Origin: a bacterium
Lineage (GTDB): Bacteria; Actinomycetota; Coriobacteriia; Coriobacteriales; Eggerthellaceae
Reading direction: 5' to 3'
NCBI GenBank assembly: GCA_963586955.1
Contig: CAVABR010000048.1
Coordinates: forward strand, 7,862-71,861
Length of the DNA: 64,000 bases
Shown here: positions 37,938 through 40,900 of the stretch, piece after piece
Position numbering within the stretch: the stretch's first letter is position 1
Layout: every line of letters begins with the position of its first letter
Program-made: the position numbers and the translations under genes
Notes under the pieces: generated by a model
What the model was told of the DNA's origin: nothing
Seen by the model: the letters and a program-made list of their open reading frames with translations, nothing else
Database searches by the model: none

Positions 37938-40900
37938 CTATTCGCTCTCTGATTCACTTGGATCGGCCGGATCAGTTGACTCAGCAGCATTGCTTGCAGC
38001 TTCGTCTTCAGCACTGGTAACACCAAAACCAAAATCAGATGAACCCAAAAGCGCATCAAGCTCTTCAAGGTTGCGCTGATAAGAGCGCGGAGGAAGTGCT
38101 TCACCAAGCATATCTTCGCCTTCAGTATTGAAGGTTGCGGGCTTATCTCCACCAATGAGCACGGTGTCATCAGGAGAAAATACCATATCAAGCAACTGGC
38201 TCATATCATCGCGAGATGCAGTGAGGTCATCTTCGATAACCTTAGACAAGCCATGTGCCTCCAAGCCCTGTTTGAGCTCTTCGATTGCCTTAGAACCAAT
38301 GCCTTCAATGCGCAAAAGCTCATCTTCGGTATGTCCTACCAAATCAGCAACCGTCTCTATGCCAGCTTCACTGAACTTGTTAGCCCAGCGCTGTGAAACG
38401 CCAAGATCATCATAGATATAGAGGCGAGCCTCTTCGTCAGTAAGGTTGTTAGCACGATATCCTGCCGTGATTGAAGCAAAATAGCTTGCATAGTCAGACC
38501 CAGAACCAAGATAGCCTTCGCCATCAAGAGACCAGTCTTGAGGCTGAGGAAGCAATTCCTCAATCTCACGCAAAGCCTCTGGAGCAGTATCAGGCAAGCG
38601 ATCTCCGTCAGGCTTACCAACAGGAACACCATGGTAGGTAAGACCCACATCGTGGTAGCGCTTAAGACCCGTACCAGCAGGGATAGGCTTACCAATGATG
38701 ACGTTTTCCTTAAGACCTTGGAGCGTATCAACCTTTCCTTCAATAGCAGCATCGGTCAAAACCTTGGTGGTTTCCTGGAACGATGCAGCGGAGAGGAATG
38801 AATCGGTTGCAAGAGATGCCTTAGTGATACCCAAAAGCAAAGGCTGACCCACAGGAGGATTCTTACCCTCAAGTACCAAATTGTTAGCAACTTCTTCAAA
38901 CTCAAAACGGTTGACCTGACGTCCTGGCAAGTAGTCAGAATCGCCCGGATCAGTAACCGCTACCTTGCGAAGCATCTGACGAGCAATAACCTCAATATGC
39001 TTATCGTTAATATCTACACCTTGAGATACATAAACGTCTTGTACCTGGTCAACAATATAGCGAAGCGTAGTATTTGGATCAGTCAAGCGGAGCAAGTCAT
39101 GAGGGTTAATAGAACCCTTGGTGAGCTGCTGACCAACGCTGACTTCGCAACCATCACTTACGCCTGGCAAGAGCTGAGCGCGCGCAGATACTACATATTC
39201 GCGAATATTGCCTTCTTGGTCATGAACAGTGAGTGTCTTGCTGTTTTTATCACCACTTACCTGCAAGGTACCAGCGATTTCAGCAAGTACTGCCTGACCT
39301 TTAGGTTTACGAGCCTCAAAAAGCTCAGTAACACGAGGAAGACCGTGGGTAATATCTTCACCTGCAACACCACCAGTATGGAAGGTACGCATCGTAAGCT
39401 GGGTACCAGGCTCACCAATGGACTGAGCAGCAATAATACCTGCAGCAGTACCAATGTTAACCGGACGCGAAGTTGCCAAATCCCATCCGTAGCACTTCTG
39501 ACAAATGCCATGTTCAGCATGACAAGTCATAACGGCACGGTGCTTAATGGTCTTAACGCCTGCATCAGCAAGCTGTTGGAGCTGTTCAACCGAAGAAGGA
39601 TATTCGCCTGCTTCAAGAACAACCTCACCGGTGGTTTCACTTACGGCATCCTCAGCTAAGCAGCGACCGATCAGGGAGTCATCAACTTCGCCCTTAGCAT
39701 TAAGGATGGAGCATTCAACACCATCGGTAGTACCGCAGTCAATTTCACGAATGATAACGTCTTGAGCAACGTCAACAAGACGACGAGTAAGATAACCTGA
39801 GTCAGCAGTACGCAATGCGGTATCAGCCAAACCTTTACGAGCACCATGCGTCGAAATAAAGTATTCCAAAACCGAAAGGCCTTCGCGGAAGTTTGCTTTA
39901 ATAGGACGGTCAATAATCTCACCCTTCGGGTCAGACATCAAACCGCGCATACCAGCAAGCTGACGAATCTGCTTGATGTTACCACGAGCACCAGAGAAAG
40001 CCATCATGTAAATTGGATTGAACTTGTCGAAGTTGTTTGCCATAGCTTCGCCAACTTCTTCATTTGCAGCATTCCAAATGTCAACGACGTTCTTATGGCG
40101 CTCTTCATCAGACATAAGACCCATTTCATAGTCTTCGTCGATAGCCGCAACCTTTTCGTCTGCTTTAGCCAAAATTTCTTCCTTGTTAGGAGGAATAGTA
40201 GCGTCATAGACAGAAACAGTAACGCCAGCGCGAGTAGCATAGTGGAAGCCTGCTTCTTTCAAGCCGTCCAGAATTGGCTCCATTTCGCTGGTGGTATAGC
40301 GATTACAACAATCTTCAACCAAACGAGAAATCTCAGTCTTGTTCATTTCGTAGTTCAAGAATGGATAGCTGTCAGGCAACACGGCATTGAATGTAATACG
40401 ACCAACCGTAGTCTCAATGCGCTCTCCTGCTTTGTGCTCTTCGTATACGCCAAAGGCAGAAGCAACCTTGGTGTCTTTAGTAAGACGAACCCAAATCTTG
40501 GCCTGAAGGTCTAACTCTGCGCGAGCATCATAGGCGTTCATTGCATCGTCAAAGTCAATGAACGCACGTCCCTCACCAGGGAAATTGTCACGCGCAGCAG
40601 TGAGATAATACAAACCGATGATCATATCCTGCGTTGGAACTGTCAAAGGACGACCATGAGCAGGAGATTTAATGTTGTTAGCGGAAAGCATCAAAACACG
40701 TGCTTCGGCCTGAGCTTCATTTCCCAGTGGCACATGAACAGCCATCTGGTCACCGTCGAAGTCAGCATTAAATGCCGTACATACCAAAGGATGCAAACGA
40801 ATTGCCTTACCTTCAACAAGAACTGGCTCAAATGCCTGAATACCCAAACGGTGCAAGGTAGGAGCGCGGTTAAGAAGAACAGGATGTTCGGTAATAACCT

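Follow-up and report, generated by a model that had tools for sequence, protein, structure and literature searches.

An alphaCTD-family domain tethered to the RNA polymerase beta' subunit in most sampled Coriobacteriia

Introduction

In the accepted picture, the core RNA polymerase of bacteria has two alpha C-terminal domains (alphaCTDs), both on the alpha subunit. This RpoA alphaCTD (PF03118; PDB 4mex_A, 1z3e_B, 5vi8_T and 1lb2_B) is also the closest described relative of the domain reported here, with which it shares its family, its predicted fold and a flexible tether to the core enzyme. The E. coli-type domain attaches to the alpha N-terminal domain, whereas the copy described here lies in frame at the end of RpoC, on beta' rather than alpha, with a tether of 81-170 aa counted from the PAGTG sequence. 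Aligned without gaps, the fused domain is 40% identical to the E. coli RpoA alphaCTD and keeps R265, N268, G296 and K298, but it differs by N294G, S299A, E261G, S266W and C269K and is more acidic.

Our list of alphaCTD DNA-contact residues follows, in part, passages of two papers (PMC5511352, PMC1874639). Passages of the first describe a water-mediated DNA contact shared by R265 and N294 and a contact of D259/E261 with sigma, and report that an UP element does not stimulate the polymerase of Thermus, in whose alphaCTD some DNA-binding residues are missing (PMC5511352). Passages of the second define the 265, 261 and 287 determinants and report that substitutions of S266, C269 and S299 impair alphaCTD function at lambda pM (PMC1874639).

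Three further systems invite comparison. The Thermus thermophilus alphaCTD (PDB 1doq; Z 7.6 in structure comparison) combines G at position 294 with R265, as the fused domain does, but it is alpha's own domain and has H at 268 and R at 298. Acidic repeats AR1 and AR2 of E. coli NusA (TIGR01954; PDB 1u9l) share the (HhH)2 fold and carry net charges of -10 and -8, against -7 here, but lack R265, G296 and K298. Zinc fingers of the zf-TRM13_CCCH (PF11722) and DUF5763 (PF19067) types occupy the same terminal beta' slot in 32 of 151 genomes of the class; they have an unrelated fold and are absent from beta' of the window, by which we mean the whole 64,000-nucleotide stretch analyzed.

The long form of beta' is not new to databases. 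The NCBIfam equivalog NF011498 / PRK14906 (1459 positions), whose CDD title we take to be 'beta'/alpha domain fusion protein', models the whole protein including its tail. It aligns to aa 1-1460 of the RpoC studied here over profile positions 1-1455 of 1459, scoring 2898.6 bits (cut-off 1437), and the tail alone scores 326 bits. Public clusters, too, already carry the PF03118 label on long-form RpoC. As a naming model, NF011498 is silent on function, on the finger-type tail and on the moved motif described below. We found no study of the beta' fusion or of the NusA finger (see below) in the literature searched; surveys of polymerase insertions or their supplements may mention them, and Lane and Darst in 2010 and Iyer and Aravind in 2012 are said to have made such surveys. 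Long-form beta' is thus already catalogued, yet the fusion is apparently unstudied.

Most sampled members of the class, which includes common gut genera, carry this third and strongly conserved alphaCTD on beta', and one branch appears to have swapped it for zinc fingers. Knowing the role of this arm would reveal how regulatory arms come to be gained and exchanged on a core enzyme. Its component domains are familiar and the long form is catalogued, so we regard it as an unexplained variant and not as a new kind of system.

Results

The rpoC gene (37938..42374, minus strand) encodes a long-form beta' subunit of 1478 aa, as identified by its uninterrupted reading frame and its match to NF011498, and abuts rpoB (42375..45902, minus strand), whose beta subunit has the ordinary domain set. 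The five usual Rpb1 Pfam domains of RpoC reach aa 1189, and the usual beta' end ([10 protein letters not shown]) closes at aa 1240. The frame stays open for 238 residues beyond it, as an initial annotation of this DNA had described. That annotation divided the extension into a linker, a domain at aa 1317-1378 (nt 38426-38241) and an acidic tail. The domain has the sequence quoted there, and linker and tail are both present, but the first ~15 residues past PAGTG correspond to the beta' end usual in actinobacteria (elsewhere in the phylum it extends 15-172 aa), and a conserved motif lies within the tail, at aa 1387-1402.

The extension opens with a segment at aa 1237-1276 (38547..38666, minus strand) that comprises the ordinary beta' terminal strand and a class-wide helix, with 53% mean identity over 28 rows from the source's order. 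We presume that this is the strand that contacts omega in solved enzymes, where the beta' end sits beside omega; omega is present in the source genome. The helix follows the pattern LP-x-x-A-P...L-x-E-x-E-x-x-L-P and appears as H122-130 in our predicted model; strand and helix are both common to alphaCTD-type and finger-type tails. After it come a variable and likely flexible linker at aa 1277-1314 (38433..38546, minus strand; 32% mean identity over 28 rows; pLDDT 48-55) and the alphaCTD-family (HhH)2 domain (38241..38426, minus strand), assigned by profile, BLASTP and predicted fold. A class-wide 16-residue motif at aa 1387-1402 (38169..38216, minus strand), located by motif search and modeled as part of helix H239-255, leads into the acidic tail at aa 1403-1478 (37941..38168, minus strand). 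This tail is partly conserved to aa 1444 (mean identity 40%, net charge -5) and unconserved beyond (13%, net charge -10).

Just past the rpoC stop codon lies a perfect, GC-rich 12-bp hairpin (37877..37906, minus strand; fold z -5.33) without a clear or canonical T run, which is likely a transcription end signal; a terminator scan did not call it. At the other end of the protein, the translation shows an acidic helical insert at ~aa 140-225 (nt ~41700-41957, minus strand), a position occupied by the actinobacterial beta' i1 insertion according to passages of PMC5511352.

By its sequence, the fused domain belongs to the alphaCTD family. PF03118 matches aa 1322-1372 with 36.7 bits when the entire RpoC is scanned and 42.8 bits when the domain is excised (E 3.6e-9 to 4.4e-11; curated cut-off 23.8 bits), and HHH_5 reaches 27.9 bits (cut-off 27). 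The NusA repeat model TIGR01954 scores 17 bits, below its cut-off of 48.15. BLASTP aligns the domain to E. coli RpoA with 24/60 identities and no gaps (E 2e-11), close to the ~24/62 first counted by hand, and gives 14/46 identities (E 8e-5) over its best stretch with E. coli NusA AR1. In a sequence search of the PDB, the first 48 matches are all alpha subunits, and NusA turns up at E 0.15.

An AlphaFold2 model of the last 334 RpoC residues, built from a 51-row alignment, predicts that the domain adopts the (HhH)2 alphaCTD fold, with pLDDT of 83-95 in the domain, 67-80 in the helix downstream and low values in the linkers. The six top rows of a VIA-align comparison are all alphaCTDs, with Z from 10.2 (rmsd 2.4 Å over 69 residues) through 9.9 down to 7.6; RAD51-family N-terminal domains rank next (Z 6.9 and 6.5), and NusA AR1 scores 5.2. 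The closest folds include alphaCTDs, the RAD51 N-terminal domain and the HhH domain of Y-family polymerases. Isolated alphaCTDs superpose on the modeled domain with an rmsd of 1.4-1.7 Å over 60-69 columns. With the whole 334-residue model as query, Foldseek found nothing at E <= 0.001.

Profile score, fold Z and identity to RpoA all agree with the original proposal of an alphaCTD-type (HhH)2 domain tethered to beta', and the profile and fold comparisons that the initial annotation had suggested both place alphaCTDs ahead of NusA repeats. The core enzyme thus carries three domains assigned to the alphaCTD family, one of them tethered to beta'. We considered the NusA-like origin that had been raised as a caveat, and found it disfavored by the profile score (17 vs 48.15 bits), by fold (Z 5.2 vs 10.2) and by the missing R265, G296 and K298 in AR1 and AR2.

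The premise that an alphaCTD is normally found only on alpha proved too strong: PF03118 domains are common in other proteins and often repeated there (41/41 representative matches scanned). An all-protein profile search is dominated by multi-repeat alphaCTD-like proteins, so that its best 150 matches, 23 of which have RpoC or domain motifs, all of Coriobacteriia type, say little about fusions in other phyla. Many of the proteins found (P0136-P0285) have 2-13 alphaCTD-like repeats, several of them fused with sigma region 4 or with restriction-type helicases. In a domain tree of 58 columns and 61 rows, which cannot name a donor, the RpoA clade (99/80) excludes the fused copies.

The fused domain is well conserved close to home. 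Averaged over the 21 pairs formed by seven genomes of the order, the fused domain is 80% identical, the RpoA CTD 92% and the RpoC core 71%. Comparison with eight relatives finds 20-36 of its 60 codons differing silently and 2-11 of 60 altering the residue, a codon pattern of purifying selection. It drifts more across the class, with 34-48% identity to two distant members.

We next consider individual positions. The six equivalences first assigned hold (R265=R1329, N268=N1332, G296=G1360, K298=K1362, N294=G1358, S299=A1363), and three had been missed: E261=G1325, S266=W1330 and C269=K1333. We compared 70 domains, 43 from the order and 27 from the rest of the class, of which 68 had been selected with a pattern that includes G261 and R265. 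R265 is present in 70/70, a count that is partly built in because R265 is part of the selection pattern; two loci missed by the pattern keep R at 265, and one has Q at 261. G296 is found in 70/70, K298 in 65/70, N268 in 55/70 and D/E at 259 in 70/70. The changes are N294 to G in 70/70, S299 to A in 69/70, E261 to G in 70/70, S266 to W in 65/70 and C269 to K in 62/70.

The full E. coli DNA-contact set (R265, N268, C269, N294, G296, K298, S299) is not kept, given C269K, N294G and S299A. Nor is the 261 determinant for sigma region 4 (D259, E261), which retains the acidic residue at 259 and has G at 261. The N294-to-G change produces a G-h-G sequence, as in canonical DNA-binding HhH motifs, and the putative DNA face of the domain comprises R1329, N1332, K1333, G1358-I-G1360 and K1362. 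A near-invariant W (65/70) and an F adjoin R265, position 287 is D/E, and the domain's net charge is -7 in the order vs -1 for the RpoA CTD.

RpoA of the source genome keeps an intact CTD (98 bits) with its key residues, which disposes of the earlier idea that the fusion compensates for a degenerate RpoA CTD. The RpoA CTD is present in 41/41 genomes, and among those read R265, N268, C269, N294, G296 and S299 are kept in 15/15 and K298 in 14/15. With RpoA intact, the fusion is not a replacement for a lost alpha CTD. RbpA was not found in the source genome nor in 28/28 tail-bearing genomes, but it is also missing from 23/31 genomes without the tail. Its absence explains nothing, and we rejected a reading based on RbpA compensation. 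Besides Mfd, the source genome has only a weak, below-cut-off CarD-like protein of 180 aa (L249:1123-1665, minus strand; C69).

Our survey covered 151 Coriobacteriia genomes, each at least 90% complete, which are related samples and not independent draws. The alphaCTD-type tail is present in 112 and CCCH zinc fingers in 32; in seven the rpoC end was not found. The tail was matched in 73/73 genomes of the source's order (E <= 2.7e-40; 34 tails read directly), and with the class total this argues against the worry, voiced early on, of an assembly artefact. Among the other 78 genomes, a long frame with the domain was found in 39 (37 from a first search and two from a re-search; 28 read directly as RpoC ends), and the 32 finger-type beta' subunits were identified by direct reading (11) or by near full-length match (21). 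The protein cluster of this RpoC has 1063 members, one of which is from Anaerotardibacter muris (Eggerthellaceae, Coriobacteriia).

Outside the class, more than one PF03118 match occurs in 22 of 185 genomes, a set of 185 that includes eight unpublished ones used in this tally only. We re-searched the 22 and read eight long-frame matches. Six proved to be RpoC fusions, spread over three families, and two of these fusions have tandem domains; the remaining matches were a kinase and a second rpoA. A further 55 genomes of the phylum whose RpoC end could be read had neither domain nor fingers (46 by HMM, nine by eye). Tail-less relatives of fusion-bearing genomes in two families indicate that gains or losses recur. 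In one genome, G199, RpoA bears a second alphaCTD-like copy and RpoC bears two; G294 likewise has two on RpoC (loci L144, at G199:C14:35200-35900, L088 and L084). Two outside-class fusions, L080:991-1497 (plus strand) and L081:1010-1552 (plus strand), have Y at the R265 position and are otherwise closer to the RpoA CTD.

The 16-residue motif follows the pattern D-h-S-x-h-x-x-x-h-F-[DES]-P. It was derived from 36/39 tails outside the order, where it lies upstream of the domain or fingers. Within the order, its best match lies ~60 residues past the domain start in 43/45 rows (44 genomes); 38/45 of these rows beat 95% of 200 shuffles, with mostly low scores, and the earliest-branching member of the order scores 23 bits. 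With the motif before the domain elsewhere and after it in this order, the domain has changed place relative to the motif.

Finger-type tails have one or two C-x9-C-x10-C-x2-H fingers in the alphaCTD slot, behind the same linker. They were seen in five families of the class (L033:2671-3222 (plus strand), L034, L035, L036 and L094-L100), and of four such tails scanned, three score above cut-off for PF11722 and one for DUF5763. In a FastTree phylogeny of RpoB and RpoC (39 genomes, 2383 columns), 8/9 finger-type genomes group together (0.91) inside a set of alphaCTD-type genomes (0.98), and this nesting suggests that the fingers replaced the alphaCTD-type domain. A NusA tree of 30 rows disagrees weakly, with finger-type genomes basal and an alphaCTD-type clade at 85/57. 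Overall, the beta' tail behaves as a modular appendage, with an anchor helix and a short motif fixed in the class and a terminal domain that is moved or replaced.

NusA of the class carries a related finger. It ends in a CCCH finger with a near-invariant RCRN in 26/26 class genomes read (30/34 fetched loci), and a NusA-finger profile scores 21 beta' fingers at 25-51 bits, indicating that the two are homologous. NusA of the source genome (L077:1330-1464, minus strand; G000:C55) has the finger and no acidic repeats. Outside the class, G212 has both an RpoC fusion and a NusA finger, and G241, G294 and G199 have the fusion without the finger.

Discussion

The best explanation that we can offer, which we hold tentatively and at a little short of an even chance, is that the fused domain is a tethered, sequence-independent grip on the DNA backbone. 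An alphaCTD-type arm on beta' would then be a third grip that helps to hold the polymerase on its template. The face formed by R265, N268, K269, GIG and K298 would touch DNA phosphates and the minor groove, in the manner of other HhH proteins; the absence of N294, S299 and E261 would remove UP-element specificity and the contact with sigma region 4; and the tether would allow the domain to reach upstream duplex DNA. We favor this reading for two reasons: the surface residues that are best conserved are those that point toward DNA in alphaCTDs and in HhH proteins, and the beta' slot accepts another nucleic-acid-associated module, a CCCH finger family found also on NusA, bL21 and Csm5, all nucleic-acid-associated proteins.

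Several observations weigh against a DNA grip. The domain is acidic (-7 vs -1 for the RpoA CTD), and two outside-class fusions have Y at 265. The W and F beside R265 could mark a protein interface, and the exchange for fingers points to RNA as easily as to DNA. A residue set with G at 294 may bind DNA weakly or not at all, since the Thermus alphaCTD shares G294 and, in the passages cited above, its polymerase gave no UP-element stimulation (PMC5511352).

The acidity of the domain and its conserved W and F would also suit protein docking. The partner could be sigma, an activator, the body of the polymerase or, notably, NusA, for example through the basic CCCH finger at its C-terminus or through its N-terminal domain. 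In E. coli, NusA is bound by alphaCTD, and complexes of alphaCTD with NusA AR2 exist (2jzb); NusA of the class lacks AR1 and AR2 and ends in its finger instead, and G212 pairs fusion and finger outside the class. Docking, though a serious rival, is less likely than the DNA grip: conservation among exposed positions is highest on the DNA face, E261 has been replaced and D/E stands at 287, G241, G294 and G199 have the fusion without a NusA finger, and genomes with a finger-type beta' retain the NusA finger though its supposed partner is gone. A bolder version, which we consider distinctly doubtful, is that Coriobacteriia rebuilt the polymerase-NusA interface, so that a swappable beta' module (alphaCTD-type domain or NusA-type zinc fingers), placed by the class-wide motif, works with the NusA finger to control elongation or termination. 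If true, this would be a regulatory arm absent from all model bacteria.

The exchange of the domain for fingers otherwise found on NusA, bL21 and Csm5 would also suit a slot for RNA contact, with the arm bound to the exit-channel region or to nascent RNA and adjusting pausing, termination or ribosome coupling. We judge this improbable, if a genuine rival, given that the closest folds are DNA binders, that a replacement domain need not share its predecessor's ligand, and that the finger's own ligand is only putative.

A third alphaCTD of the full E. coli kind, able to read UP elements and to contact activators and sigma region 4, would account for the kept equivalents of R265, N268, G296, K298 and D259, but it is very improbable in view of G at 294 (70/70), A at 299 (69/70) and G at 261 (70/70). 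Passages of the cited work place N294 in DNA contact and D259/E261 in sigma contact (PMC5511352), and report impaired function at lambda pM on changes of S266, C269 and S299 (PMC1874639). Scarcely credible are compensation for a lost RpoA CTD or RbpA, despite the missing RbpA of tail-bearing genomes, and a neutral appendage or artefact, despite outside-class families with and without the fusion, in light of the intact RpoA CTD (41/41), the RbpA-less genomes without a tail (23/31), the tail in all 73 genomes of the order, the 1063-member cluster and purifying selection.

The CCCH finger turned up in two further settings. In finger-type genomes, bL21 ends in the same finger after a Lys/Ala/Pro linker in 3/3 extra matches (L259:565-1089, minus strand; L260; L261:105-728, plus strand); bL21 lacks it in the five other genomes searched. 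In the source genome itself, the Csm5 protein of a type III-A CRISPR system (C91:4632-6059; L247:2136-3560, minus strand) contains an inserted NusA-type finger that scores 28 bits.
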